Assembly (NCBI GenBank): GCA_030638685.1
Contig: DAOWED010000130.1
Coordinates: 1 to 49,070, forward strand
Reading direction: 5' to 3'
Length of the DNA stretch: 49,070 bases
Source: Candidatus Heimdallarchaeota archaeon
Lineage (GTDB): Archaea; Asgardarchaeota; Heimdallarchaeia; Heimdallarchaeales; DAOWED01
Both the position numbers and the translations under genes were made by a program. Under the pieces are notes generated by a model. It was not told where the DNA came from and did not search any database. It saw only the letters and a program-made list of their open reading frames with translations. Shown here piece by piece: positions 760 through 39,255 of this stretch. Within the stretch, counting starts at the first letter, position 1. Each line of letters starts with the position of its first letter.

Positions 760-768
760 GTGATTATT

Positions 769-2856
769 ATGAAAACTTACAAACTTTTTTCACTAATTAT
801 TCTTTGTTTATTTATATCAACCCCTCTTGTTGCATCAAGTGCGTCCTCTGGTGATGCTGTGATGGTTTATGGTGACTTTGTTATTACTGATACCATTTCA
901 ACTCCTTCCTCAAACTCACCTCCGGCAGTTTATGCTTCTGCTTCTACCGATGAAGATCTCTCTCTTCAAGCCGCTTCTTATGGCCGTAGTATTATCATTA
1001 CTGAAGTTGGTGCTGATCAAATTGAACTTCAAAATGTTGCAAGTAGTACAATTAATATTACTGCTTACACCTTGGAATTAACCTATGATAACGCTTCTAA
1101 GGTAACAATTGTAATCGAAGAAGTCATTGAGATAGCCGTTGATGCTTATTATGTTTTAGATTCTACTAATACCAACTTGAATGCTTCCACTATTGATCTT
1201 CAAGCTGGTATTCTTGAACTTAAATCTGGCTCTACATCTTATCAAGACGTTGTAGCATGGGGACACCTTGGAAAAGCTCCGGCTATTCCTGTCGGTTCCT
1301 CTATCTCTCGATCTAGTCTTACTCCGTTCCAAGTAGGTGTTCAACCTGAATTTGTTGTATCTGATGATTGGAGCATTTCAACTAGCACCACCTTAGGTAC
1401 TGTAAACGATGTTGTTGCTCCTGAACTTAATTTATCTTCAATTATTCTCTCTGAGCTTTTCTCAAATGGCTCTGATAGTTTTATTGAAATCATAAACTTA
1501 GCAAATGAATCAATTGATATTGAGGATTATACCCTTTATGTTAACAATTCATTAGTTCATACTTTTGCAGCAGAAACATTAACTCCTTCAGGAACCGCTA
1601 TTTTTGAAACTACAGATGATGTTGTAACTCCTACAGGTAATTTGTACTTGTATAATTCCTCTGGAGCTCGTATTGGTCAGATGGGTTGGAATGATCTAAT
1701 AGCTGGTTTTAGTTTCAGTCGTTTCTTAAACTTCACTTATGATTACTCTGAGTTTGATGACATGTTCGTATATGATACCGAACAGCAATATGACTATCGT
1801 AAGATTGAAGTTGACTCATCATTTGAATGGGACTATTATGATGGATATAACGCTGAATTGAGCGGTTTCTCTTATTCTGAGCCTACTCGTGATGCATTTA
1901 ACATCAACACTCTTGAAATTCTTACTGTTAATGCTAGCAGTTTCTTCACTGCAAGAAAGGAAGATGTTGGTAAATGGATTAATGAAAGTTATGCACCAGT
2001 AATTGGTTTATACAATGTTTCTGTTTATAATAATGGATCATTAACAATACCTCACCTTAATTTGTATACTTACTTTGATGGAGGTGTTGATTCTCCAGAT
2101 CCTCGTGTTGTAAAGCTACCTTTGTTCAACTGGACGAATATCGAATATGAAGTTTTTGATTTTGCCCCAGGGGACTGGTTAAATGTTACCGTTAAAGTTA
2201 CCACTGTGCAAAATGGTACCGCCCACAATATTAACTTCTTAACAATGAATGATATTGTAGTTTTAGACTCAGTCACTTCTTTAAATATTAGTCAAGCAAA
2301 AGCTAAGATTACTGGCTTCTTTAATCCAAGCCGATATGAAGCTGGTAAAGCATTTATAGCTAATGTAACCTTAACAAATACAGGTACATACATTGCTGAA
2401 AACATCAATTTCACTCTACGACCCAACGCTATTGATAGTTTTGGAACTGATCGTTTAAATAGAGATGATGATTTTATATGGTCTCATGTCTTCGACGAAC
2501 AAGAGTTAGACGTTCGAGAAGCATTTGATGTTTCCTTCAATTTCACCGGTGTTCAAAATATATGGGATCCAGTTAAATTTGTTAAAATCAAATTCAGAAT
2601 AACTTATTCAACTAAGGATCTAGATGATAATCTTGAATCATTTGGGTATTTGAAAGTGTTTATTCTTTCTCCGTCGTTATTTAATCCCTTTGCCTGGGAA
2701 AATCCTTTTGCATTCGTAATTTGGGTGCTGACAGGAATATTTTCAATGTGGTGGGTTTCACGATGGTTCTACCGAGCTTCTAAACCCAAGCCTCGCCCTG
2801 AGCCAACAGAGTATGTCTATCCTGAGAATATTGTTTCTGAACCGGATGACACTTAG
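769..2856 (+). CDS. Membrane-anchored surface (glyco)protein with two lamin-tail-domain (LTD)-like segments and CARDB-like segments
   Basis: The ORF is listed as 760..2856 (GTG). The ATG at 769 is preceded by AGGTGA (757-762), so I prefer 769. The N-terminus MKTYKLFSLIILCLFISTPLVASSA looks like a signal peptide. LTD-like stretches are IIITEVGADQIELQNV... and ILSELFSNGSDSFIEIINLANESIDIEDYTLYV. A CARDB-like stretch is YEAGKAFIANVTLTNTGTYIAENINFTL. The C-terminus has a TM helix FAFVIWVLTGIFSMWWV followed by a basic/Pro tail. I count about 20 N-x-S/T sequons by eye. Confidence 0.7.
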   Translation: MKTYKLFSLIILCLFISTPLVASSASSGDAVMVYGDFVITDTISTPSSNSPPAVYASASTDEDLSLQAASYGRSIIITEVGADQIELQNVASSTINITAYTLELTYDNASKVTIVIEEVIEIAVDAYYVLDSTNTNLNASTIDLQAGILELKSGSTSYQDVVAWGHLGKAPAIPVGSSISRSSLTPFQVGVQPEFVVSDDWSISTSTTLGTVNDVVAPELNLSSIILSELFSNGSDSFIEIINLANESIDIEDYTLYVNNSLVHTFAAETLTPSGTAIFETTDDVVTPTGNLYLYNSSGARIGQMGWNDLIAGFSFSRFLNFTYDYSEFDDMFVYDTEQQYDYRKIEVDSSFEWDYYDGYNAELSGFSYSEPTRDAFNINTLEILTVNASSFFTARKEDVGKWINESYAPVIGLYNVSVYNNGSLTIPHLNLYTYFDGGVDSPDPRVVKLPLFNWTNIEYEVFDFAPGDWLNVTVKVTTVQNGTAHNINFLTMNDIVVLDSVTSLNISQAKAKITGFFNPSRYEAGKAFIANVTLTNTGTYIAENINFTLRPNAIDSFGTDRLNRDDDFIWSHVFDEQELDVREAFDVSFNFTGVQNIWDPVKFVKIKFRITYSTKDLDDNLESFGYLKVFILSPSLFNPFAWENPFAFVIWVLTGIFSMWWVSRWFYRASKPKPRPEPTEYVYPENIVSEPDDT

Positions 2857-4379: not shown

Positions 4380-6644
4380 ATGTCTTCCGAATTAACTAGG
4401 CTTAGAGTCGCAAAAGGCGTTAGAAGTGATGCCGGGAAAGGTTTCGCTAGAATTCATAATTTAACCATGAAAAAACTTAATATTTCAACAGGTGACATTA
4501 TCACCGTTCAAGCCAAAAAACTGACCGGTGCAATCGTTATCCCAGCTAGACCTGAAGATGATGATGAAACTATGATACGCATGAATGGTCTTTTAAGAAC
4601 TAATTCTGGGGCTTCGATAGGTGAATATGTCAATATTGAAAAAGTCGAAGTTGAGGTTGCGGAAGCGGTAGTTATTGCTCCTGTGGAGAAAGGAATAAAG
4701 ATAAGAGCTACTGAAGAACAGATTCGATCTACCATTATTTCAAAAGTCGTTACTGAAGGAGATCTTCTCTCTCTAAGTGCTCCTTCTGTTAAAGTTCAGA
4801 AAGATAGCTCTGAAATTTCAGAGATACCCTTTTTATCACATCTTTTTGGTTCTGGCACTTCTATTTCTATGAGTGAGGTTAGAACGGTAGTGATCAATAC
4901 TACTCCTTCAAAAGTAGTACAGATTGGAGAACACACTCGAATAACTGTATCGGAATCTCCTATGGAATTTAAAGTAGGCACTTTTGTAACTTATGAGGAT
5001 ATAGGTGGCCTTGATGAGCCAATTCGACGTGTTCGAGAAATGGTAGAATTGCCTTTGAAACACCCGGAAGTATTTGAAAGGTTAGGTATAGAACCACCTA
5101 AAGGCGTTTTACTGTATGGTCCTCCCGGCACAGGAAAAACATTATTAGCAAAAGCGGTAGCAAAAGAAGCAAACGCTACTTTTCACTCAGTTGCCGGCCC
5201 CGAAATAATGTCTAAATTTTATGGTGAATCAGAACGAAAACTTAGAGATATTTTTGATGAGGCTGAACGAACCGCACCTTCAATCATTTTTTTTGATGAA
5301 GTTGATTCACTTGCACCTAAAAGAGAGGAAGTTACTGGTGAAGTTGAAAGAAGAGTAGTGGCTCAGTTATTGTCAGCAATGGATGGGATGAAAAGTAGAG
5401 GGAGAGTGGTTGTAATCGCTGCTACAAACAGAATAAATGCTATTGATCCTGCACTTAGGCGACCCGGTCGCTTTGACCGAGAGATTGAGCTAGCTGTTCC
5501 AGATAAGGATGGAAGAACGGAAATTCTCTCAATCCATATGAGAGGTATGCCTATTGCAGAATCTGTTGTACTTTCAGATTTAATTAACCGCACAAACGGG
5601 TTTGTTGGAGCTGATTTAGCTTCATTATGCCGAGAAGCAGCAATGCAAACCTTACGACGAATTTTACCTGAGATTGATTTAGACAGCAATGATCAAACTG
5701 ATAGCGTTCTCTTTAATCTAAGATTTCTTCCTGAAGATTTTGACGGAGCATTAAGATATGTCTATCCTTCTGCTTTACGTGAAGTAATGATTCAAATACC
5801 AAACGTTAAATGGTCAGAAATTGGCGGATTAAAACAGCTCAAAGCTTCACTTATTGAGATGGTTGAATTACCACTAACTCATCCCGAAGTATTTACTTAT
5901 CACGGTATTCGCCCTCCACGAGGAATACTTCTTTTTGGAGCTCCCGGTACGGGAAAAACAATGTTAGCTAAAGCTGTTGCAACGGAATCACAGGCAAATT
6001 TCATAAGTATTAGAGGTCCCGAAATCTTAAGTAAGTGGGTGGGTGAAAGTGAAAGAGCTATTCGTGAAGTATTCAGAAAAGCTAGACAAGCGGCTCCTTC
6101 AATAGTTTTTTTTGATGAGATTGATGCAATTTCTCCAAAAAGAGGTGGTTATTCTGGTTCCACACACTTGGAAACTATAGTGAATCAACTTTTGACAGAG
6201 CTTGATGGCTTAGAAGAACTAAAAGGTGTAGTTGTAATTGCAGCAACAAATAGGCCCGATATGGTTGATCCGGCCCTTCTAAGAGCTGGACGATTTGATC
6301 GTCTCTTACTTGTTCCAGCACCTGATGCAGAAACCCGCCTCGAAATCTTGAGCGTTCACATGAAAAACATGCATTTAGCTGATGATTTGAATATTCATGA
6401 TCTTGTTGAACGTACAGTTAATTTTGCGGGATCTGATCTTGAAAACTTATGTAGAGAGGCTGTAATGATTGCTTTGCGTGAAGAAATATCTATTAAAGAA
6501 GTTTCTCAACGACACTTTGGTGAAGCACTTAAATTAGTAAGACCCAGTCTTAATTCAGACATAATAAAATACTATCAAGAAATGGCTGATAAACTACTTC
6601 AAAAAATGAGTTCCTCAGCAACTATAGCAGATGATTTTAAGTAA
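4380..6644 (+). CDS. cdc48: Cdc48/VCP/p97-type AAA+ ATPase (N domain plus D1 and D2 rings)
   Basis: 754 aa. There are two Walker A motifs ([16 protein letters not shown]), two Walker B motifs ([16 protein letters not shown]) and two second-region-of-homology segments (ATNR...[12 protein letters not shown] and [20 protein letters not shown]). The N-terminus is double-psi-barrel-like (LRVAKG...GDIITV). Confidence 0.95.
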
Positions 6645-7136: not shown

Positions 7137-8687
7137 ATGATCAGAATTGCTCATATATCAGATACTCACTTCACTACTGGGAAAGAGTTTGAAAAAGAAT
7201 TATATCTTCAAGCAATTCAGTACATTAATTCACTAGATCTTGATTTTGTAGTCCACACTGGTGATTTAACTCATGCTGGACTTAGACATGAATACTTAAT
7301 AGCTAAAGAATTGTTACCCTTGATTGAACACCCCGTTTATTATTTAATAGGTAACCATGATGCTAGAAATGTAGGCTATGAGCTTTGGGAGGAGTATATG
7401 GGTGTCAGATCCGGTTATTATGTTGAAGATAATTATCTTTTTGTTTATCTAGATTCTACCATCCCAGATAAGGATGCAGGTCGTTTTGGTCAGGAGACGA
7501 TCAGTTCTGTACGAGCTATCCTTCAAAAGCATCAAGATAAAAAAGTCAAAATTGTTGCTTTTCACCATCATCTAATTCCCCTTGAAAAAACCGGACGTGA
7601 GCGAGGTTTTGCTATCGATGCCGGTGAGATGATTAACTGTCTTCAAGACCATGGAGTTGATTTAATCCTAACTGGGCATAAGCATCATGCTTCTTCCTAT
7701 AAAATAGAGGACACAATCATAGTTTCCGCAGGGACTATTTCCTCATTAAAAAGAAGGGCTGGAGAGGCAGCTTCTTTTAATTTGATCACTATTAATACTT
7801 CACATAATATTGAAGTAAGCACTGTATCCTTAGGTTCCTCAAAATCTGCTCTTGCTCCCTCTTCTCCAACTTCATATTCAATTGCCAGATTAACACGTTT
7901 AATAAATGCTAACTCCCCCAAAATCTGCCGTATTGTTCAATTATCCTCAACTTATTACGGAGGTTCCGATTTTAATTCAAAATCCCATGATCACGGATTA
8001 AAGCTAATAAAGCGCCTTAATGCCGATATGGTGATTCATTGTGGGAATGTTTCCTCAAAAGGTTTAGAGGGAGAATATAAGGAATCACATAGTAACTTAA
8101 AACCACTTACTGAGAACCTATACATAACACCCGGCCCTTCCGATTTGAAACACATGGGTCCAGCATTATTTACAAGATACTATGGTGAGGATCGAACTAT
8201 CGAAAGAGAAAATATGTTACTTTATTTGCTCAACTCATCTCAGGTGGATAGTAAGTATGGTAGGATTGGGCGAGATCGCCTTAAAAAACTTGTAAATCAA
8301 GTAGATGAAAACACTGAGTCATATGACAAATATACAGCACCGGTGAGTGTACTGGTAACTCATCACGCAATAATACCTATACCGAGGCTTATCTGGAATG
8401 AGACAATAGAGGATGCTGGAGAAGTACTAAGGGCTCTTGTAAGTTTACCCATTGATCTTGTTCTTACTGGAAGCAAGCACAAAGCTTTTGCTACTAGAGT
8501 AAACGAAACCATTTTAATTAATGCTGGAACTTTTTCAAGCAATCATATTATGTCGAACTTTGGAAGTTCATTCAATGTGATTGATGTACTCCATAACGGA
8601 GGAGTAATTGTTTCAGAAGTATCAACTCAGTCCGGTATAAGAAGGATATTGGGTATTTTTTCATTAATCAGACTAAAAGAAGTCTAA
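7137..8687 (+). CDS. Tandem-duplicated calcineurin-like metallophosphoesterase; the second half has degenerate metal ligands
   Basis: 516 aa. The first half has IAHISDTHF, HTGDLTHAG, GNHD, FHHHLIP and TGHKHH. The second half aligns but reads QLSSTYY, HCGNVSS, TPGPSD, THHAIIP and TGSKHK. Confidence 0.85.
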   Translation: MIRIAHISDTHFTTGKEFEKELYLQAIQYINSLDLDFVVHTGDLTHAGLRHEYLIAKELLPLIEHPVYYLIGNHDARNVGYELWEEYMGVRSGYYVEDNYLFVYLDSTIPDKDAGRFGQETISSVRAILQKHQDKKVKIVAFHHHLIPLEKTGRERGFAIDAGEMINCLQDHGVDLILTGHKHHASSYKIEDTIIVSAGTISSLKRRAGEAASFNLITINTSHNIEVSTVSLGSSKSALAPSSPTSYSIARLTRLINANSPKICRIVQLSSTYYGGSDFNSKSHDHGLKLIKRLNADMVIHCGNVSSKGLEGEYKESHSNLKPLTENLYITPGPSDLKHMGPALFTRYYGEDRTIERENMLLYLLNSSQVDSKYGRIGRDRLKKLVNQVDENTESYDKYTAPVSVLVTHHAIIPIPRLIWNETIEDAGEVLRALVSLPIDLVLTGSKHKAFATRVNETILINAGTFSSNHIMSNFGSSFNVIDVLHNGGVIVSEVSTQSGIRRILGIFSLIRLKEV

Positions 8688-8863: not shown

Positions 8864-9769
8864 ATGGTGGAAGCACAAAGTTCTATCGATCTAGAGTATG
8901 TTCTTCAGAAAGCATTATCTGTATTCGTTATAGGTGGGAATGGACAGTTGCTTCACTATGAATGTTTTAGCGATCAAGTAGAAATTGATCCAGATTTGTA
9001 TTCTACTTTTTTTACTGCAATAAATCATTTTGCTTTAGAAATTGATCAAGGAGCAATAGAAAGAATTGATTTACATTCGACAAAACTCGTTTTTAAAGGC
9101 TATGAGGACGTTTTAGTAGTTGTTGAGGTAGATGAAGCTCTACCGGATGCTCATTCTCTTTGGTTAATCTCACAAGTAATTGAAAGGTATGCAATCTTAG
9201 TCGAAAAGACAGGTAAAAACCTAGATAAAAAACTCGACACCTTATTCATGGAATTGGGTTCACAGTTAACTTTTGACATAGTCCGAGAAATAAGAATGGC
9301 AGCAACAGTTACAGAAGAGGAGGAAACCGTTGCTGAAGTCACAATTTTATCACCAAAAATTTCTTTGCAAACTTCTACAAGAAGAAAATTAACTACTTCA
9401 TTAACAAGAATAATCGAAGATAATTTTGGCTTAGAAGCAATAATTCTTTCATTTAATCATATGGAGGTAGAAAATATAATTGCTTTTTCACTTATTGATA
9501 GTGAAATTCTGGCAAAAAAAATCTCTTCCGGTTTACTTTCTATTCTTGAAGATGTTTCAAATGCTAAAGAGATAGACAACAGATTGCTTCATGTTGAAGA
9601 GTATTTCTTCTTAGCAAGCCCAATTGATATGCCAAATAGTGTATTAGTCACAGTGGGGCGAGAAAAAGAGCATTTGTCAGATATTGATCCTTTCATCAAA
9701 AGAGTTACAAGATTTGTTTCAACGCTTATTTTAGGGGATGAGGGAAGAGCTTTTGTTCCAGGTGTATAA
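8864..9769 (+). CDS. Two-module roadblock/LC7(MglB)- or longin-type protein; a candidate GTPase regulator
   Basis: 301 aa. The N-module (about aa 1-125) and C-module (about aa 170-301) both show the helix/strand-strand/long-helix/strand-strand pattern of this fold. Examples are VFVIGGNGQLLHYECF...DPDLYSTFFTAINHFALEI...IERIDLHSTKLVFKGYEDVLVVVEVD and AIILSFNHMEVENIIAFS...SEILAKKISSGLLSILEDV...HVEEYFFLASPIDMPNSVLVTVG. An acidic linker TVTEEEETVAEV joins them. The fold call is by eye only. Confidence 0.6.
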   Translation: MVEAQSSIDLEYVLQKALSVFVIGGNGQLLHYECFSDQVEIDPDLYSTFFTAINHFALEIDQGAIERIDLHSTKLVFKGYEDVLVVVEVDEALPDAHSLWLISQVIERYAILVEKTGKNLDKKLDTLFMELGSQLTFDIVREIRMAATVTEEEETVAEVTILSPKISLQTSTRRKLTTSLTRIIEDNFGLEAIILSFNHMEVENIIAFSLIDSEILAKKISSGLLSILEDVSNAKEIDNRLLHVEEYFFLASPIDMPNSVLVTVGREKEHLSDIDPFIKRVTRFVSTLILGDEGRAFVPGV

Positions 9770-9771
9770 AA

Positions 9772-10587
9772 CTATTCATCTTCTTTTTTCGCTTTAGTAG
9801 ATTTAAAGAGGTCAATTACTTCTTCAGTCATTACTATCCTCTTAATACCTGCAACTTCAATATCTAAAAGATGCATATGACTCTCAAGTTTAGCAGCAAT
9901 TTCCTCAATACGATCAACATTTGTTTCCAGCTGAGACAAACGAGAAAGAATAGAATTATCATTGTTAGACAAAGTAGGTTGGGGGGGTGAAGTTGATGAA
10001 ACAGGAGCGGATTGTTGAGAGATTGAAAGATCTTCTTCAAAAAGCTGAGACATAAGACTATCAGAAATATCATGGAATACCTGATCGATGTTTTCTCCAG
10101 TTAATGCGCTAGTATATTTAAGAAAAATGGGGATATTATACTCTTTCTTAAGTTCATCCAGAAGAGAACGAACTTCATCATCAGAGACGGACTTCAGCTC
10201 GGAAAGATCAATTTTGTTACCAATGATAGTAATGCCTAAAATGGTGTCTCTGCAGTATTCAAAAGCCTCAGAAACCCATGAACGAACTGAAGAAAGAGAA
10301 TCAGTGTTTGTAACATCAAAAACGGATATAAGAAAAGAAGTACCGTAATAAAAAGTGGAACGCATGCCTTTAAACATGTTCTGGCCAGCTAAATCCCATA
10401 TGGTGAGTACTAGCTTCTTATCTTGATAAGTAGCTGTTCTTGATGCCCAATCACATCCTAATGTAGGCATATAATTTACTCTGAATGATCTTCCCATGTA
10501 TTGTCTTCTGATGCTTGTTTTTCCTACTTGACCATCTCCTACGAGTATGATTTTAAAGGTTGCATCAGGTAAAAAGCGTTTTTCCAT
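9772..10587 (-). CDS. Ras-superfamily (Rab/Ras-like) small GTPase with a ~90-aa C-terminal low-complexity plus coiled-coil extension
   Basis: 271 aa. All five G motifs are present: G1 GDGQVGKTS, switch I YMPTLG, G3 WDLAGQ, G4 GNKID and G5 TSAL. The tail is QQSAPVSSTSPPQPTLSNNDNS followed by the heptad-like LSRLSQLETNVDRIEEIAAKLESHMHLLDIEVAGIKRI. There is no C-terminal Cys. Confidence 0.9.
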   Translation of the reverse strand: MEKRFLPDATFKIILVGDGQVGKTSIRRQYMGRSFRVNYMPTLGCDWASRTATYQDKKLVLTIWDLAGQNMFKGMRSTFYYGTSFLISVFDVTNTDSLSSVRSWVSEAFEYCRDTILGITIIGNKIDLSELKSVSDDEVRSLLDELKKEYNIPIFLKYTSALTGENIDQVFHDISDSLMSQLFEEDLSISQQSAPVSSTSPPQPTLSNNDNSILSRLSQLETNVDRIEEIAAKLESHMHLLDIEVAGIKRIVMTEEVIDLFKSTKAKKEDE

Positions 10588-19664: not shown

Positions 19665-22355
19665 CTAATTCATTATAAACCAAAAATTATCAGATACAGA
19701 CCAAGTATTTTGTTCAAAAGTAATTAGACCGTCTGATAACGGATTTACGGTATAATATTCCTCTTGCTGAAGCAGTTGATCGTATTGATTTATCCAAGTA
19801 TAAGCTAATGATGCATTTATTAGTTGAATAGAGTTGGATGGAAGATCCATCATTTTGTATTTAATGAAAGAGTTGAGATCAGAACTACTTAGAGAAAAGT
19901 TCTGCTGAAAAATCTCCTCTCCTACTGAATAGAATATTTGTGAAGATACTTCGACGGATGATGCTTGTAAACTAGTGAAATCGAGAAGACTTACCAATTC
20001 ACCGGTTGATGTTTCTCTTTCTTTGAGAGGAACCATTAAACTACTAATACCTAACATAGAATTATCAACTGATAATCCTAAATCTAAAACACCGTAGAAC
20101 GTATTGAAACTATTCACTTTATAGAGTTCAAACTCTGAATTATTGTAAAGATAAGAAAAAATATCACTATTATGAACCATTGAAAATATAGGGTATTCTC
20201 GTAAAATGTAGGATTCAAAAGATTCATACCAATTATGGTCCTTTCTTAAAGAAACAACAAGAGTAATATCATATTCGTTCATTATCTCAAGAAGATAAGT
20301 AGTATTGAACCTAGCAAAATGATTCTTGGAAAGATCAAACTCGGTAGTGTAGAAAAGATCTATTACGGGATGACTTGAGTAAAATTCTAATCCTGGTACG
20401 TTAGCTCCAATGATAACATCTGAGTTGGGTGCTTGAGACACTCTTATTGCTTCAATAAGATCCATCATGTTTTCTCGGGCATCGTAAACCCATTTATTCT
20501 GAAACTCATCAATGTCAAAACCTGTATCATACAGAAGATAAATTTGACCTCCTATAGGGGCGATGAGTAAAACACTTATTACTCCAACAGTAGCTCCTTT
20601 GTGAATAGCAGCACTTTTCCTAGGCTTCGGAAGCGAGAATTCATAATTATCCCATTTAATTATAAGATATATTAGCAAGGTAAAAGCTACTAAGTAGTAG
20701 CCTAACCTGAAGAGATTTCTATGATATTCATAATATCTTAAGTGAAATTCTAAAGAAACTGTTTCTAAAGGATAAAAAGGGTACTGTGATCCAAAAGCCA
20801 ATAGTAGTAATAACCCTTCTACTAAAAGACTGGGGTCTCTTCCTTCAGTTAATTTTGCATGAAGGAAATAAAATCCTTTAACTGTGATTAATGCTAGTGG
20901 TACAAGTATAACTGACAAATATCGGGTAGATGTGAACGAAAAATAAGCCAGCCAGATAATGTAGAATCCTATTAACCAGATCCTGATCATATCCCATTCA
21001 CCTTCATCTTTTTCTCTCTTAAAAATACCAACAATTTTGGGAAGAGCCCAAGGAAGAGCAAAGATTGATCCGATAAAAATGACTAGAACTGCACTCCCAA
21101 AAGATGCTTTCATGGCGTTTTCAATATATGTTTCCGCTTCAGGGATATTAATTTCAGGAAAAGAATAATTCCATTTGTCATCATTGATATAAACATACAT
21201 GTCTTCAAGAAAAGATCGAGTTCCGGGGGTGGTCTTTATTCGATCATATAACCAGTAAACCGCGACCAATAACCATGGAATGAGTTCTAGTGATAAGGTT
21301 GTTAAAGAAAGATTCTTTGTTTCTTGCTGAGTAAAGATAAGATAGGCAAGATAAAGACCAAAAAGAATAATCACAACACTCACGCCAATATAGATGTCAT
21401 ATCCTGCTTTTCTAGCCAAGAATAATGTCATGAATGTCAAGACAATTATGCGTAAAATTTTACCGATTCTGTTAGAGGGAGCGGAAAGAAGAATTAACAA
21501 TGGAAGAGCATAGCCACTAATTTTAGAAAGACCAGCTAAGGCTAAACTTAGCCCTGCAATTGTGGCATTTAGTTTCTCGTTTTCCTTCCCTTGGATTAAT
21601 CGAAGATGAAAGTAAAAAGCCATGGTGTAAAAAGCCATAATGTAAAGGTCTTGATAATAAGCCCATTCGTAAATAAGGAACCATGTAAGTGGGGAAGTAA
21701 TAAAGAAAAGAACTGAGCTAATAGCTTTTCTTTTGCTTTGAAACAACTCAAAGGCCAATCGATAGAGTGTTAAGGCTGTTAGAATAAGAATGAAAATAGA
21801 ATAAAAAACAAAACTGTCCTCTTTTGTAACGTAAAGGGCATAAGTATAAAGTAAGGAATTAAGAGGGGGTTTAAAGATGGGGAGAAAATTATAGGGGCTT
21901 ATAGCTGGAATATCATTAGTAAAATAAAAAACTCTGGCATGGGGTAAGTAAAAATGAAGGGCGTCCCATCCTCTGAAAGTGTACAATAGTGAAATAATAG
22001 TATAACTGAGCAATATTAAGCCAGAGATAATAACTCTGATATCTTTAAAAAACGAAGGAATTTTAAACTCAAAAAAAGTTAAACTGTTCATAGTATGCTG
22101 ATAATGCTTGAAAAGAAGATAAACCGGATAAAGCATACTCACAGCAAAGTAAAAGTAGCATATTGTATCAAGAGGTACATTGAATAATCGGTTTAGAAGC
22201 ACCATAGGAGCTGTAAGGAAAAAAAGACTCAAAATAGAACCACTGATGATTTTATCGAGAGTATTTTCATATTTCCAACCGAATTTATCTAAACTATTTA
22301 CTCCTAAAAGTCCAATAAAACCTATGCTAATAATAGGGAGCATTTCTAATATCAT
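19665..22355 (-). CDS. GT-C fold membrane glycosyltransferase (ArnT/PMT-like, polyprenyl-phosphate-sugar dependent) with a large C-terminal extracytoplasmic domain
   Basis: 896 aa. About 580 aa are polytopic (well over 10 hydrophobic helices), followed by a soluble region of about 300 aa. The first loop carries FRGWDALHFYLPHARVF. I found no WWDxG motif, so I do not call it AglB/STT3. Confidence 0.65.
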   Translation of the reverse strand: MILEMLPIISIGFIGLLGVNSLDKFGWKYENTLDKIISGSILSLFFLTAPMVLLNRLFNVPLDTICYFYFAVSMLYPVYLLFKHYQHTMNSLTFFEFKIPSFFKDIRVIISGLILLSYTIISLLYTFRGWDALHFYLPHARVFYFTNDIPAISPYNFLPIFKPPLNSLLYTYALYVTKEDSFVFYSIFILILTALTLYRLAFELFQSKRKAISSVLFFITSPLTWFLIYEWAYYQDLYIMAFYTMAFYFHLRLIQGKENEKLNATIAGLSLALAGLSKISGYALPLLILLSAPSNRIGKILRIIVLTFMTLFLARKAGYDIYIGVSVVIILFGLYLAYLIFTQQETKNLSLTTLSLELIPWLLVAVYWLYDRIKTTPGTRSFLEDMYVYINDDKWNYSFPEINIPEAETYIENAMKASFGSAVLVIFIGSIFALPWALPKIVGIFKREKDEGEWDMIRIWLIGFYIIWLAYFSFTSTRYLSVILVPLALITVKGFYFLHAKLTEGRDPSLLVEGLLLLLAFGSQYPFYPLETVSLEFHLRYYEYHRNLFRLGYYLVAFTLLIYLIIKWDNYEFSLPKPRKSAAIHKGATVGVISVLLIAPIGGQIYLLYDTGFDIDEFQNKWVYDARENMMDLIEAIRVSQAPNSDVIIGANVPGLEFYSSHPVIDLFYTTEFDLSKNHFARFNTTYLLEIMNEYDITLVVSLRKDHNWYESFESYILREYPIFSMVHNSDIFSYLYNNSEFELYKVNSFNTFYGVLDLGLSVDNSMLGISSLMVPLKERETSTGELVSLLDFTSLQASSVEVSSQIFYSVGEEIFQQNFSLSSSDLNSFIKYKMMDLPSNSIQLINASLAYTWINQYDQLLQQEEYYTVNPLSDGLITFEQNTWSVSDNFWFIMN

Positions 22356-33103: not shown

Positions 33104-33868
33104 TTATACTTTTTCAAAATTATCAAGAGCCTTTCTTAAAGAGACCTGAATCAATTTTTGAAGGGGACGAATAATTAAGTTAACAGAACCAGGTCTATGT
33201 TCAGGTTTAAGTGTTCCTTCATGAGTAACTAAATCTAAAATGTTATCTTTCTTAAGAAGGGCAAGAAGATCATTTCTTGCAGTAAGACAACTTCCCGTCA
33301 TTACAAAATCAGAAGCTTTGGTTTTTGAATGCACTATACCTTCATCGACTAGAATCTCAATCAACTCAGATTTTGGTGTTCGATCAGATGAAGGGATATC
33401 ATTTTTATTAATAAAAGTTACAACCGGCAAGCCTTCTTTCACTTTTTCTGCAGTAAACTTAATGGCGTTTAAATTATCCTCCCAACTTCTATTATCAAAA
33501 TCTAACAAAAGAAGAATGCCATGAGCCCCCTTTATAATAATATCTCTTTGTGTTTTATGTCGTTCCTCACCTGGTGTGGTCCAGATTTGAAATCTGAATC
33601 TTTCAAGAAGCTGCCCTTTGATTTTTGGTGTTTGAAAAAGACCTTTATCGAAGAAAATTGTTCTTCCTACTTCATCTTCTAACATTTGAAGTTCAGAAAC
33701 AACAAGCTCTGGATCTTCAATCTTTCTGATTGCATTGATTATTCTTAAAGCGGACGTTTTACCTGCAGCAGATGGTCCGTGAAGAACTATTTTAAGAGTG
33801 GGTAGTCCTTCCCAATCAACTGTAAGTGGAGAAGAGATCATAGATTTAGAATAAACTCTATCATACAA
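33104..33868 (-). CDS. MglA-like small GTPase with a Q-to-E substitution in G3 and a ~80-aa C-terminal extension
   Basis: 254 aa. The motifs are KIVLHGPSAAGKTS (G1), GRTIFFD (MglA-type switch I with Arg), FQIWTTPGEE (G3 with Thr in place of Asp, as in MglA TVPGQ, but Glu in place of Gln), IIKGAHGILLLLD and INKND (G4). Confidence 0.8.
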   Translation of the reverse strand: MYDRVYSKSMISSPLTVDWEGLPTLKIVLHGPSAAGKTSALRIINAIRKIEDPELVVSELQMLEDEVGRTIFFDKGLFQTPKIKGQLLERFRFQIWTTPGEERHKTQRDIIIKGAHGILLLLDFDNRSWEDNLNAIKFTAEKVKEGLPVVTFINKNDIPSSDRTPKSELIEILVDEGIVHSKTKASDFVMTGSCLTARNDLLALLKKDNILDLVTHEGTLKPEHRPGSVNLIIRPLQKLIQVSLRKALDNFEKV

Positions 33869-33984: not shown

Positions 33985-36216
33985 ATGATCTTCAGAAAAC
34001 AATTCCTTCTCTTTTTTATCTCAGTATTGCTTGTTTCTTCATTATCAAATAACTCCAATGCAAGTACTACTATTTCATTAAGCAAAGAATCACTCACTTC
34101 AACCATTGAACCTTCTATTCAAGATAGTCTTTCCTCTTCTGAGTTTGTGGATATTACAGCTATTTTGAAATCACGAACACTAGAATATACACCTGATTCA
34201 GAACCTGAAATAAGAAAACCGAGCTTAACTCCTTCTATTCAAGTTGTGGGTGATTTTGAGTTATTCTACGTGTACAGTAACCCTGGTTATGACCAAATAA
34301 ATACTACACTAAAGGCGATTGGCGAACACTGCTACATTTATGTTGCAAATAGCTATTCAATGACTGCTGGAGAAATCGCCAACTTTATGGATGAGTTTGA
34401 CACTATTATTTATCCTGAAGAAACAAGTTTCTTTGGGGATACTGATGGTACTCTTGGAGATATTGATGGTGATCAGAAGATCACTTTACTATTTTATCAT
34501 ATCCCCTTTGCCGCCGGTTATTTTGATTCGATACATGAACACCCCATTAATTATTTTACTGGGTATGAATACAAAGAATGCAGTAACGAAAGAGAAATGG
34601 TATTCTTAAGAAAGGATGGTTTTAGCACCTTAGCCCACGAATTTAACCATTTAATACATTATAACATCGATCAAACAGAGGATCGTTTTCTTGACGAAGC
34701 TTTTGCACAAATGGGTGAATGGATTACCGGATACCTCCCATCTGATAACAGAACTGGTTTTGTTTCTTATTTTGAGAACTATTCTAATGATTCTCTTTTA
34801 ATGTGGGACTATGATTCTGAGGATCATGATGCCAGAGTTGATTATGGTGGAGCTTACCTTTTTATTTTCTATTGTGTTGAACAATTTGGGATCGAAATCT
34901 TGGAACCTCTAATGTCTTCTCAAGAAGATGGTGCAACTTCTATTGAAAACACTCTAGCAGACCTTGGTTATTCTATTACTTTTGAAACTCTCTTTACTAA
35001 TTGGTATTTGGCTATGCGACTTGATGATCCTACATTAGGTGATGGAGAATGGGGTTATAGGTGGCTAGATGTAACACTTTATGACAAGGTATTCATCACC
35101 TCAGCTCCTACAAATGTAACAATTAAAGAATTCGAATGGTCAGGATCTTTTTACCATTTTAACATTGAATCATCAAATGAACAAAGTATAAACATTACAG
35201 CCCCTTCAGATGCAAACTATCAATTAGTGTTCTTACCTTATGAAGATGGTTTACTTCCACCATACGATTCAGTTTGGATTTCCTCAGGGAATTCATATCA
35301 AGTAAATGATGATCAATGGAATCAAACTGATAGATTTGAAATGCTTGTTTTATCTATTCCTAATAATTTAACAGGAGATTTTGGTATCGGTGACCTTTTA
35401 ATTGGTTCATTTGAACTTGAAGCTGTTTTTTATTCTGTTTCAACTGGAGATTTCAATTACAATCTTCAATATTTTAGTCTTGAAAATGTTGAAATAAGAT
35501 ACAATGATTCATTAGTATTGCCAGAATCAATATCTGAGGTTTCAATTCATTTCTTTGATGAATTAGATACTGAACAAGTTTTTTTAACAGTAGATTTAGT
35601 TTATGATGAAGAAAATCAATCTTGGCGTTTATCTGAAAATATAACTTTAGAGTACCTTTCACACGGATTAAACTACTACAAAATATATGTTATACACAAT
35701 GAAGACCATTGGTGGAGTGCAAAATCCACTACTTTTGAAATTGTGCACGAAATGCTTCTTGAATCATTATCAATCTCCAGTACTTCTGAAACTCTTAATA
35801 CTTATTATGTTAAATCAAGCTTCAATTTTACTTATCCACTTTGGGAAGATTATTTGGATGATCTGACCGTAGAAGTTGAATTCTTTGAGGACGGAAGTGC
35901 TTCTCCTTTTGAAATAAAAACAGCATATTATTCATCTGATGAAGGTGTATGGATAACCTCAATTACTCTTACTTCAGACATGGACCCCATTTACGTGGTT
36001 ATTAATGCTTCAATTACTATAGCTGGTGATTCATTTAGCTTGGAAGTTACTTCATCTCCAATTGATCTCGAATATTATCCCCCATCTGACCCTCCAACCG
36101 ATGAACCGTCAGATTCCTCACTTAGTGAATTCAACTTGGCATCTCTTGGAATAATTATGATTTCGATGGTTAGTTTGGTTTTTATTAGACGATTTTCAAA
36201 TAGGAAGAAACTTTAA
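33985..36216 (+). CDS. Secreted, C-terminally anchored zinc metalloprotease-like protein (HExxH, gluzincin-like) with a large beta-rich C-terminal region
   Basis: 743 aa. It has a signal-like N-terminus (LLFFISVLLVSSLSNNSNAS), TLAHEFNHLIHY...FLDEAFAQMGEW (HExxH plus a downstream Glu), a Pro/Asp/Ser linker PPSDPPTDEPSDSS, a TM helix LASLGIIMISMVSLVFI and an RRFSNRKKL tail. Confidence 0.7.
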   Translation: MIFRKQFLLFFISVLLVSSLSNNSNASTTISLSKESLTSTIEPSIQDSLSSSEFVDITAILKSRTLEYTPDSEPEIRKPSLTPSIQVVGDFELFYVYSNPGYDQINTTLKAIGEHCYIYVANSYSMTAGEIANFMDEFDTIIYPEETSFFGDTDGTLGDIDGDQKITLLFYHIPFAAGYFDSIHEHPINYFTGYEYKECSNEREMVFLRKDGFSTLAHEFNHLIHYNIDQTEDRFLDEAFAQMGEWITGYLPSDNRTGFVSYFENYSNDSLLMWDYDSEDHDARVDYGGAYLFIFYCVEQFGIEILEPLMSSQEDGATSIENTLADLGYSITFETLFTNWYLAMRLDDPTLGDGEWGYRWLDVTLYDKVFITSAPTNVTIKEFEWSGSFYHFNIESSNEQSINITAPSDANYQLVFLPYEDGLLPPYDSVWISSGNSYQVNDDQWNQTDRFEMLVLSIPNNLTGDFGIGDLLIGSFELEAVFYSVSTGDFNYNLQYFSLENVEIRYNDSLVLPESISEVSIHFFDELDTEQVFLTVDLVYDEENQSWRLSENITLEYLSHGLNYYKIYVIHNEDHWWSAKSTTFEIVHEMLLESLSISSTSETLNTYYVKSSFNFTYPLWEDYLDDLTVEVEFFEDGSASPFEIKTAYYSSDEGVWITSITLTSDMDPIYVVINASITIAGDSFSLEVTSSPIDLEYYPPSDPPTDEPSDSSLSEFNLASLGIIMISMVSLVFIRRFSNRKKL

Positions 36217-38176: not shown

Positions 38177-38542
38177 TTATACAACTAATTGTATTGGTTG
38201 GTCAACTTGAACTGAAATTTCTCCATTTTCTTCATGAGTTATTTTGGCATTAGATGGGACAATTATTGAAAAGAGGTTTTTTGATCCTCTGCTGAATAAC
38301 CCCTTTTTCTCATGTTCTGTTTCACATTTTAAATACTGAATGCCTCTATATTCTTCAGGGTCATTTGCTATGGTTAGCATTATTCGTTCAATAAGACCAA
38401 ATTCTTCTTCTGATGTTAAAATATGGTTCTCAAGTATTAATATAGTATTTTTCTTACTTTTTCTAACAAGAAAATCTAATTTGCTATCTGTTGATAATCT
38501 GTTAAGTTTAGCTTCAGGGATTAAGGCAACATTAAACATCAT
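38177..38542 (-). CDS. Small conserved-looking hypothetical protein (possibly DUF2073-like), translationally coupled to the upstream GTPase
   Basis: 121 aa. Its ATG overlaps the GTPase TGA (ATGA at 38539-38542), with GAGGTGGT just upstream. The core is ILILENHILTSEEEFGLIERIMLTIANDPEEYRGIQYL. The family assignment is from memory only. Confidence 0.6.
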   Translation of the reverse strand: MMFNVALIPEAKLNRLSTDSKLDFLVRKSKKNTILILENHILTSEEEFGLIERIMLTIANDPEEYRGIQYLKCETEHEKKGLFSRGSKNLFSIIVPSNAKITHEENGEISVQVDQPIQLVV

Positions 38543-39255
38543 ACCACCTCTGCTATCTTTGAATAGAGCTCCTTCACTCCTTTTCCATCAAGTGCTGAAA
38601 TTAATATTATGGACATGTCTGGAAAAATTTGATCAAGTAGTTCACTATTTTCTTTTGCTCCTGGGAGATCCATTTTATTACCAACAATAATGCAAGGAAC
38701 TTTATTAGCCTCCAAATTGCCTAATATTGTCAAATTCACCTGGTCAAAAGGAGCCTTCGATAAATCTACCACTATTAAACCAAGATCGACTTCTGTAATG
38801 CTTCTAATCGCTTCAATTATTCCTCTTGTAGCTTCTCTAGCTCTTACGAGTGCATCTTCTCTTGGAATTCCCATCCTTATAAATTCTTGAAAATCAACTG
38901 AGGAAGCAATTCCTGGCATATCCATTAGAGTTAACTCTAACGAAGTATCATCTATATGAAAATTGACTTGTTCAAGTTTTTCAATTGTTCTCGTTTCATG
39001 AGGGATTTCACTTACTGAACCCATTTTTTTACCAGTATAATCAAGAGAAAAATGATTAGCAAGGGTTGTCTTTCCAGCGTTTGTTTCACCGAAGAAACCT
39101 ATCTTTGCATCATTACGTTTTCTACTAATCCATCTTGAAAACCAGTTGCTTTTTGAACTTGAGGTGGCCATATAACTCAAACTATTTTTAAACCAATTAA
39201 TAATAAAACAAAGGTAATACTCGAAAAATACTACGGGAATACCGGAATAATACAC
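38539..39255 (-). CDS. Era/HSR1(MMR_HSR1)-type small GTP-binding protein
   Basis: 238 aa. The motifs are G1 GETNAGKTT, G2 region HETRT, G3 DMPG, G4 GNKMD and G5 ISALDGKG. The listed start adds a hydrophobic 28-aa leader. The internal ATG at 39171 (MATSSSKSNWF...) is an alternative start. Confidence 0.85.
   Translation of the reverse strand: MYYSGIPVVFFEYYLCFIINWFKNSLSYMATSSSKSNWFSRWISRKRNDAKIGFFGETNAGKTTLANHFSLDYTGKKMGSVSEIPHETRTIEKLEQVNFHIDDTSLELTLMDMPGIASSVDFQEFIRMGIPREDALVRAREATRGIIEAIRSITEVDLGLIVVDLSKAPFDQVNLTILGNLEANKVPCIIVGNKMDLPGAKENSELLDQIFPDMSIILISALDGKGVKELYSKIAEVV

Follow-up and report, generated by a model that had tools for sequence, protein, structure and literature searches.

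A tandem roadblock protein gene and a Rab-like GTPase gene that meet tail to tail in a Heimdallarchaeia genome: regulatory pair or ordinary neighbors?

When a gene for a small GTPase stops two nucleotides away from a gene for a protein with the kind of fold that binds small GTPases, is the second protein the regulator of the first? This question is raised by a 49,070-nucleotide (nt) contig of Candidatus Heimdallarchaeota archaeon (DAOWED010000130.1, assembly GCA_030638685.1), which we call the window, meaning the whole stretch of DNA that was analyzed. In it, a gene for a 301-amino-acid (aa) protein with two roadblock-type modules (8864–9769, + strand) converges with a gene whose product is a Rab-like small GTPase of 271 aa (9772–10587, − strand). 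An earlier interpretation that used only the letters of the window and its open reading frames (ORFs), here called the sequence-only reading, had placed both ORFs exactly where the window's ORF list puts them, and had proposed that they encode a cognate GTPase–regulator pair. We find that the observation was correct and that the inference was over-extended: as it stands, the arrangement is a plausible but ordinary juxtaposition. The matter is of wider interest because matching the many small GTPases of Asgard archaea to their regulators is an open problem, for which genome layout rarely helps (Tran et al. 2024, PMC10933270).

The window has a G+C content of 35%, and its nearest named relatives are from a metagenome-assembled genome of Candidatus Kariarchaeaceae, which belongs to the Asgard class Heimdallarchaeia. 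Both ORFs are genuine genes, because in comparisons with a relative that is 88% identical the ratio of nonsynonymous to synonymous substitution rates (dN/dS) is approximately 0.11 for the 301-aa gene and likewise for the GTPase gene. The letters at the tail-to-tail junction (9767–9774) are GTA TAA (9764–9769), then AA, then CTA, which is the reverse complement of the TAG stop codon of the GTPase gene (9772–9774), so the gap between the two stops is 2 nt, as had been claimed. Each of the two genes apparently has a promoter region of its own.

Sequence searches identify the 301-aa protein poorly. Neither the whole protein nor its separate modules had a significant match in Pfam, NCBIfam or PDB, and profile searches of PDB with the family alignment, or with either module, also found nothing significant. 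We obtained an AlphaFold2 (AF2) model from an alignment of eight sequences, with a predicted local distance difference test score (pLDDT) of 70 (approximately 80 in the modules) and a predicted template modelling (TM) score, pTM, of 0.45. In this model the order of elements α-β-β-α-β-β-β-α occurs twice, in residues 10–116 and 170–297. The N-terminal module (residues 10–116; 8891–9211, +; pLDDT ~80–89) is predicted to consist of a short α1 helix (10–16), strands β1 and β2 (17–24 and 29–34), helix α2 (43–59), the three strands β3–β5 (within 67–90) and a long α3 helix (95–116). It is followed by an inter-module linker (residues 117–169; 9212–9370, +) that is modelled at low confidence (pLDDT 33–49) and has conserved columns; a short strand (158–161) lies between the low-confidence linker and the next module. 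The C-terminal module (residues 170–297; 9371–9754, +; pLDDT 63–82) is more divergent, with helices at 170–186 and 213–232, strands at 190–199 and 202–209, three further strands, and a 30-residue α3 helix (268–297) that carries R280.

The roadblock topology has been defined as α1-β1-β2-α2-β3-β4-β5(-α3), a five-stranded sheet with a single helix on one side and two terminal helices on the other (PMC10933270), and in the AF2 model both modules have it. We considered the canonical longin topology (β-β-α-β-β-β-α-α, which lacks an N-terminal helix and ends in two helices) and rejected it, because both modules have an N-terminal helix and a single C-terminal one. Since helices are present at both ends of each module, the modules are of the full roadblock type and not longins by the definitions of PMC10933270, with the qualification that the N-terminal helix of the N module is short, which makes that module borderline between the two classes. 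Structure comparison by Foldseek agrees: there were 78 matches to PDB entries at E ≤ 1e-3, mostly to roadblock and longin proteins. The top matches were to Mon1/Ccz1, BLOC-3 (HPS1/HPS4) and Fuzzy/Inturned (E from 7e-7 to 1e-4 over ~300 columns, with a root-mean-square deviation (RMSD) of 15–22 Å). Single-domain roadblock proteins were matched at E from 3e-5 to 4e-4 and prob 1.00–namely LAMTOR2/p14, MglB, the Asgard roadblock protein 7yh1 and the Streptomyces roadblock protein 3kye–with target-normalised TM scores of 0.52–0.67, obtained with a query model of moderate confidence; the longins ζ-COP and σ-adaptin also matched, with scores of 0.5–0.67. The ORF, the AF2 model, the Foldseek matches and the dN/dS ratio of 0.11 support the description of this gene as encoding a tandem roadblock protein (roadblock–linker–roadblock). 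The sequence-only reading had described a two-module roadblock/longin fold, which these results bear out, and "tandem roadblock" is the more exact term.

The tandem roadblock family is very rare. HMMER, run exhaustively over 1.84 billion cluster representatives, yielded only eight clusters at E ≤ 1e-3, representing approximately 20 sequences in the underlying collection, and the family has to date been found only in contigs of Heimdallarchaeia type. Its members are 286–367 aa long and only 23–27% identical in the alignment. A word-indexed homolog search with the family alignment contributed a single cluster (P0010), and a genome scan with the single protein returned close relatives only; the family alignment has no conserved stretch of 7–10 columns. 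Pfam domains appear below threshold in some relatives: Robl_LC7 lies in register on the N module of P0005 (E 0.07) and P0010 (E 0.009), and Intu_longin_1 on the N module of P0008 (E 0.22). The gathering score of PF03259 (23 bits) was not reached by any of these proteins, the window protein having no match and the relatives scoring 13.3 and 16.1 bits. In the literature that we searched, we found no description of tandem roadblock proteins.

Conservation within the family is uneven. Mean column identity is 52% in the N module versus 38% in the C module, and the most conserved element of the whole family is the α2 helix of the N module (DPDL...FA...G). Besides the DPDL...FA residues of this helix, the invariant positions of the N module include G27 in the β1-β2 loop, E33, K74 and R108; R108 and its counterpart R280, also invariant, occupy approximately the 13th–14th residue of the α3 helix in their respective modules. 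The linker is conserved too (dN/dS 0.08), with a TLF..G..I.FD motif and invariant residues L127, L162 and S163. Internal duplication was sought by aligning the profiles of the N and C modules with hhalign: the match was not significant (prob 0.35, E 0.17), and the part that aligned lay in the expected α2-β3-β4 register. The longins that act as GTPase-activating proteins (GAPs), FLCN, NPRL2 and SMCR8, have a GP motif and an arginine finger around the β1-β2 loop (PMC12290439). In the family alignment this loop reads GGNGQ or xxSGI and the GP/Arg motif is absent, so we rejected an arginine-finger GAP-longin reading of the protein. A further family, P0011 (L021, 1598–2689; 363–369 aa), is marginally related to the tandem roadblock proteins (E 4e-4); by eye its members have two modules, joined by a long acidic linker, and Intu_longin_1 gives a signal (E 0.0026) in their C module. 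The neighbors of P0011 resemble lipid-synthesis genes in the appearance of their sequences, and no GTPase gene is nearby.

The convergent gene belongs to a widespread Heimdallarchaeia orthogroup. Its product matches the Pfam families Ras (E = 9.1e-38), Roc (1.3e-25) and Arf, and we judged its closeness to Rabs from two sources. By sequence, its best matches in PDB are Ypt31/32, Rab1 and Rab7 (all three at ~1e-28) and Rab35, with the Thorarchaeota Rab 7EZB at 1.8e-23; by structure, all of the top 50 Foldseek matches in PDB are Rabs, with target-normalised TM scores of 0.71–0.87. The G domain (residues 9–185; 10033–10563, −; Pfam Ras at residues 12–178) is constrained (dN/dS 0.06) and has Gln69 as the catalytic residue. 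The complete set of Ras-superfamily motifs, including DxxGQ, had been noted by the sequence-only reading and stands up in an alignment with 46 relatives, where G1 (GDGQVGKT), G2 (T42), G3 (DLAGQ), G4 (NKID) and G5 (SAL) are invariant or nearly so. The residues next to T42 include P41 and Y39, and an intrinsic arginine such as MglA and Gα have is absent. The canonical DxxGQ and the lack of a switch-I arginine rule out an MglA-type GTPase.

Beyond the G domain, an AF2 model from 46 sequences (pLDDT 79.7) shows disorder at residues 186–210 and a single helix at 210–270, appended to a canonical G domain. The disordered segment is an S/P/Q-rich linker (residues 186–210; 9958–10032, −; pLDDT 29–36) in which orthologs are unalignable and dN/dS rises to 0.56. 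The C-terminal helix of approximately 60 residues (211–270; 9778–9957, −; pLDDT 73–86) is again constrained (dN/dS 0.07) and has a heptad register, with hydrophobic residues at 12 of 12 a and d positions over 42 residues (six heptads). The helix has no cysteine; C45 and C112 are the only cysteines of the protein, which ends in ...KSTKAKKEDE. A C-terminal cysteine motif for geranylgeranylation (CC, CXC or CAAX) is present neither in the GTPase nor in its aligned orthologs. The earlier description of a tail with a linker and a heptad-like helix in place of a prenylation cysteine thus agrees with the sequence, the AF2 model and the heptad count.

Asgard Rab-like proteins that lack prenylation cysteines have already been documented (Tran et al. 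2024, PMC10933270), and the window GTPase is a new member of this known Asgard Rab-like class. In the literature searched we found no description of the linker plus coiled-coil architecture in an Asgard Rab. The GTPase group comprises 292 proteins at E ≤ 1e-20, and the orthogroup has more than 70 clusters. The linker and the C-terminal helix are present in every aligned Heimdallarchaeia relative, including orthologs of ~245 residues (labelled Heimdallarchaeaceae, Heimdallarchaeum or Heimdallarchaeota) that consist of a G domain, a variable linker and a C-terminal helix. Longer relatives of the GTPase (P0081–P0124; 335–456 aa), read from their sequences, have a G domain, a long acidic or S/T/P-rich linker and a C-terminal coiled coil of ~100 residues; those with a named source bear the labels Thor-, Loki- or Hermodarchaeota. 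In a Kariarchaeaceae paralog (P0079, 447 aa) the coiled coil is rich in repeats. Judged from these sequences, the coiled-coil tail is no oddity of the window gene but is conserved across a large Asgard group.

Is the adjacency of the two genes conserved? The tail-to-tail order, with an identical 2-nt gap, is present in the window and in two other contigs, L001 (GCA_054388035.1) and L015, all of them from Kariarchaeaceae. The proteins of the three contigs are 83–88% identical and every flanking gene is syntenic, so the three count as a single observation. Among the gene contexts that we examined, none of seven distant family clusters (P0005–P0010 and the marginal P0011) has an adjacent GTPase gene. 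Conversely, there is no tandem roadblock family member within 5–10 kb of two relatives of the GTPase, one in the complete genome of Heimdallarchaeum aukensis and the other P0080 (on L017). We considered whether ORFs near these two genes could be hidden homologs, and rejected all four candidates (286-aa and 136-aa ORFs in H. aukensis, 317-aa and 129-aa ORFs on L017), which score 1 bit or less against the family hidden Markov model. The GTPase group is also far more widespread than the tandem roadblock family (292 proteins versus eight clusters).

Gene order therefore gives no support to the proposal of a cognate pair: a survey of convergent adjacency in related genomes, which the sequence-only reading had suggested, finds it only in contigs that are 83–88% identical, it is absent from all seven distant clusters, and genes that converge are not co-transcribed. 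Nor is there a co-directional roadblock–GTPase operon of the MglA/MglB type, since the window genes are convergent and the distant relatives show no adjacency. To us the tail-to-tail arrangement looks like a juxtaposition specific to Kariarchaeaceae. A second Ras/Roc-like GTPase gene (33104–33868, −; 254 aa; Pfam Roc 3e-7, Ras 8e-7) is present among the ~40 genes of the window, divergently transcribed from a 743-aa ORF without a Pfam match (33985–36216, +), and the MK-D1 genome encodes 74 small GTPases (PMC10933270). From these two figures, the chance that any given gene is adjacent to a GTPase gene is approximately 4–10%, which is not negligible, and a chance neighborhood of a roadblock or longin gene with a GTPase gene is to be expected somewhere in a genome that has many roadblock and longin genes. 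As a rule, the GTPase genes of Asgard archaea do not share operons with genes for roadblock or longin proteins, and layout does not reveal pairings (Tran et al. 2024, PMC10933270).

The small gap between the two genes had also been taken to mean that their 3' ends must overlap, allowing antisense coupling of expression. The first run of five or more T residues past the stop of the forward gene is a T6 at 9784–9789, within the coding sequence of the GTPase; for the opposite strand, a T4 at the stop and a T5 approximately 105 nt further are the closest. These positions make overlapping 3' ends likely, so the first part of the claim is probably right, but a special antisense coupling of this pair does not follow. 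The seven convergent gaps in the window measure 2, 3, 6, 14, 26, 72 and 418 nt, so four of seven are no longer than 14 nt; tight convergence is the local norm and has no specific implication of antisense coupling. The small convergent gap reflects genome compaction.

The tandem roadblock gene does have recurrent neighbors, and they are of other kinds. Upstream of it in the window by 176 nt, and co-directional with it, is a gene for a two-domain GpdQ/CpdA-like metallophosphoesterase (7137–8687, +; Pfam Metallophos), to which the nearest solved structure is GpdQ (2e-10). The window, L001 and the L009/L010/L012 lineage all have a phosphoesterase gene directly upstream of the tandem roadblock gene; the L009 copy (4384–5997) is 44% identical to that of the window and ends 3 nt before the homolog P0009. 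Directly downstream and co-directional in four distant clusters (P0005, P0006, P0007 and P0009; contigs L004, L005, L006 and L009/L010/L012) is a gene for a helicase with Zn-ribbon, DEAD, Helicase_C and MZB domains. The gap to the helicase gene is 13–85 nt, or is occupied by an 87-aa ORF, and the helicases are 24–43% identical to one another. The outer flanks differ among these lineages, so the linkage looks more like the remnant of an operon than residual synteny. There is no MZB helicase among the window ORFs of at least 120 aa scanned against Pfam, with three ORFs at its far end lying outside the scan.

Outside Kariarchaeaceae, genes for a phosphoesterase, a tandem roadblock protein and an MrfA/YprA-type helicase form a tight co-directional set (L009, 4384–7801; L012, 2477–7348), with further loci at L004 (6001–9842), L006 (6001–9472) and L005 (479–2027); judging by its sequence contexts, this set may be a conserved operon. 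A small Cys-rich protein of 85–87 aa (CKWKP...FPCR.P..ELT.ELCTQCL), with no Pfam match on record, is encoded beside the MZB helicase in two lineages, including complete Heimdallarchaeum aukensis (L004, 7037–7300; L016, 4107–4364).

What, then, might the tandem roadblock protein do? The reading that we prefer, and hold tentatively, is that it offers some small GTPase a roadblock platform made from one chain, with a client that gene order does not fix. Pairs of roadblock or longin domains dimerise via β3 and α2 into a platform whose single-helix face binds a GTPase, as in MglB2–MglA, TRAPPC1/C4–Rab1, the C-terminal domains of the Rags, and Mon1–Ccz1 (Levine et al. 2013, PMC3747258). If MglB homodimers, LAMTOR2/3 and the longins of TRAPP and Mon1–Ccz1 are a guide, the two modules would most likely pack side by side within one chain. 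We infer that the α2 'top' face of such a platform would bind a Ras-superfamily GTPase and tune its nucleotide state or its location, with the better-conserved N module as the presumed main contact. The adjacent Rab-like GTPase would be one candidate client among the many small GTPases of such genomes. It would itself work as a standard Gln-dependent Rab-like switch, its amphipathic or coiled-coil helix, carried on a floppy linker, standing where eukaryotic Rabs have a prenylated tail and presumably mediating oligomerisation or docking to a partner or a membrane. Several points weigh against the platform reading. Membership of the Robl_LC7 or longin families is not reached by sequence, every match being sub-threshold; with a model built from eight sequences and a pTM of 0.45, the inter-module packing that would make a pseudo-dimer is not established; the lack of an arginine by T42 means that an MglB-style indirect GAP mechanism is not directly transferable; and the conserved neighbors of the family are a phosphoesterase and a helicase and not a GTPase, which hints at a different partner. 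A particular catalytic mechanism is not assignable, since the family has no GP/Arg finger and the GTPase no MglA-like arginine.

A more specific proposal is that the protein is a dedicated regulator (GAP, guanine nucleotide exchange factor (GEF) or scaffold) of the adjacent GTPase, possibly acting via its tail, with the 3' overlap coupling their expression. The fold is suited to a GTPase platform, the exact 2-nt gap is kept in three contigs, and similar purifying selection acts on both genes. A contact between the tail helix and a roadblock module is conceivable because roadblock proteins without an α3 helix bind helices of their partners (PMC10933270), but both modules retain their own α3 helix in the AF2 model. 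Dedication to this GTPase is hard to reconcile with the lack of independence among the three syntenic contigs, with the absence of a GTPase from all seven distant clusters and of a tandem roadblock neighbor in H. aukensis and L017, with the disparity between an orthogroup of more than 70 clusters and a family of eight, and with an orientation that precludes co-transcription; gaps of 14 nt or less are in any case common among convergent pairs here. We consider this reading unlikely. Equally doubtful in our view is that the protein is an accessory subunit that regulates or scaffolds the MZB helicase and/or the GpdQ/CpdA-like phosphoesterase and no small GTPase at all, in which case Kariarchaeaceae would have lost the helicase link and the GTPase gene would be there by happenstance. 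The helicase linkage persists in four clusters despite tandem roadblock identities of 23–27% and different outer flanks, and the window, L001 and the L009/L010/L012 lineage share a phosphoesterase gene in front of the tandem roadblock gene, with a 3-nt gap in the last of these and 44% identity between the enzymes. Roadblock/LC7 domains were, moreover, reportedly first proposed as general NTPase regulators, by Koonin and Aravind in 2000. Against it, we know of no roadblock domain that regulates a superfamily-2 helicase or a calcineurin-like phosphoesterase, and the structurally characterised roadblock and longin pairs all bind GTPases, SNAREs or motor subunits; the scanned window ORFs include no MZB helicase, and gene order shared by related archaea may partly be inherited synteny.

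The roadblock, longin and profilin core fold serves many binding functions, and the family has no conserved catalytic-looking loop like that of the GAP longins. The protein could accordingly be a pure scaffold or adaptor, comparable to dynein LC7 or to profilin and longin adaptors, with no enzymatic regulation and with neighbors that are irrelevant. The invariant R108 and R280 and the invariant linker motifs instead suggest a specific conserved interaction or activity, and the recurrent gene order speaks against irrelevance of the neighbors; we regard a pure scaffold as very improbable. Scarcely more credible, for now, is the boldest extension of our preferred platform reading, in which a single-chain roadblock pseudo-dimer would, in Heimdallarchaeia, be a platform with GEF or GAP function for Rab-like GTPases with coiled-coil tails. 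Such a protein would represent an archaeal intermediate on the way from MglB-like homodimers to the eukaryotic multi-longin Rab GEFs (Mon1–Ccz1, BLOC-3 and CPLANE), and the tail would be a targeting device that preceded prenylation.

If the tandem roadblock protein does bind a Rab-like GTPase, it would be a tractable one-chain platform for studying how eukaryotic multi-longin GEFs originated from prokaryotic roadblock dimers. If its partner is the helicase or the phosphoesterase, roadblock domains would be extended to a new class of partner. The GTPase has an interest of its own: a G domain with a floppy linker, a conserved coiled coil and no lipid anchor is one candidate explanation for the localisation of Asgard Rab-like switches without prenylation.

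The window has other features besides the two genes. A 698-aa product with a lamin-tail domain (LTD, 3.6e-9) is encoded at 760–2856 (+). An 896-aa ORF without a Pfam match (19665–22355, −) converges, with a gap of 14 nt, on a gene for a 1394-aa MacB_PCD/FtsX protein. A gene for a MMR_HSR1/TRAFAC-type GTPase overlaps by 4 nt a gene for a homolog of the origin-associated protein OapB (38177–38542 and 38539–39255, both −), which may hint at a replication origin nearby.

Among known systems, MglB–MglA offers a prokaryotic setting and a roadblock fold with N- and C-terminal helices that the window modules match at target-normalised TM scores of ~0.52–0.63 (6h5b, 6hjm and 3t1q), and the two roadblock units per GTPase in that system would be reproduced by a tandem protein. 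However, MglB has one domain per chain, forms homodimers and shares an operon with mglA, whereas the window protein has two fused and diverged modules and a convergent GTPase gene. MglA has an intrinsic arginine finger and an atypical G3 motif; the window GTPase is Rab-like, with DxxGQ and no arginine by T42. Among single domains the best structural match is to the Ragulator subunits LAMTOR2 and LAMTOR3 (p14/MP1; TM 0.52–0.67), which have the full roadblock topology and whose heterodimer of diverged units parallels the N and C modules. The LAMTOR proteins differ in being separate chains held together by LAMTOR1, and in binding the roadblock domains of the Rags rather than a G domain; the window GTPase has no roadblock domain. 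No paralog that could be a heterodimer partner was seen next to the tandem roadblock gene in the window or in the gene contexts of the family.

The tri-longin Rab GEFs (Mon1, Ccz1, HPS1/HPS4 and Fuzzy/Inturned), which act on Rabs, resemble the window protein in being multi-domain single chains, in the ~300-column Foldseek matches across consecutive domains, and in the faint Intu_longin_1 signal of tandem roadblock relatives. They differ in having three modules where the 301-aa protein has two, and the RMSD of 15–22 Å means that the arrangement of domains is unmatched; both window modules have an N-terminal helix, as in roadblocks and not in the canonical longin domain LD1, and there is no significant sequence relationship. 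Membership of the tri-longin GEFs is excluded by the two modules and the lack of a matching domain arrangement. Closer to home, the window modules also match the Asgard roadblock protein MKD1-RB (7YH1) in structure, but the roadblock proteins of Tran et al. 2024 (PMC10933270) are single-domain homodimers or fusions to GTPases, and a free-standing roadblock–roadblock protein is not described there. The window GTPase, for its part, shares with the Asgard Thor-Rab (7EZB) a Rab-like core without prenylation cysteines, and differs from it at the C terminus, which is truncated in Thor-Rab but in the window protein continues into a linker and a 60-residue coiled-coil helix.

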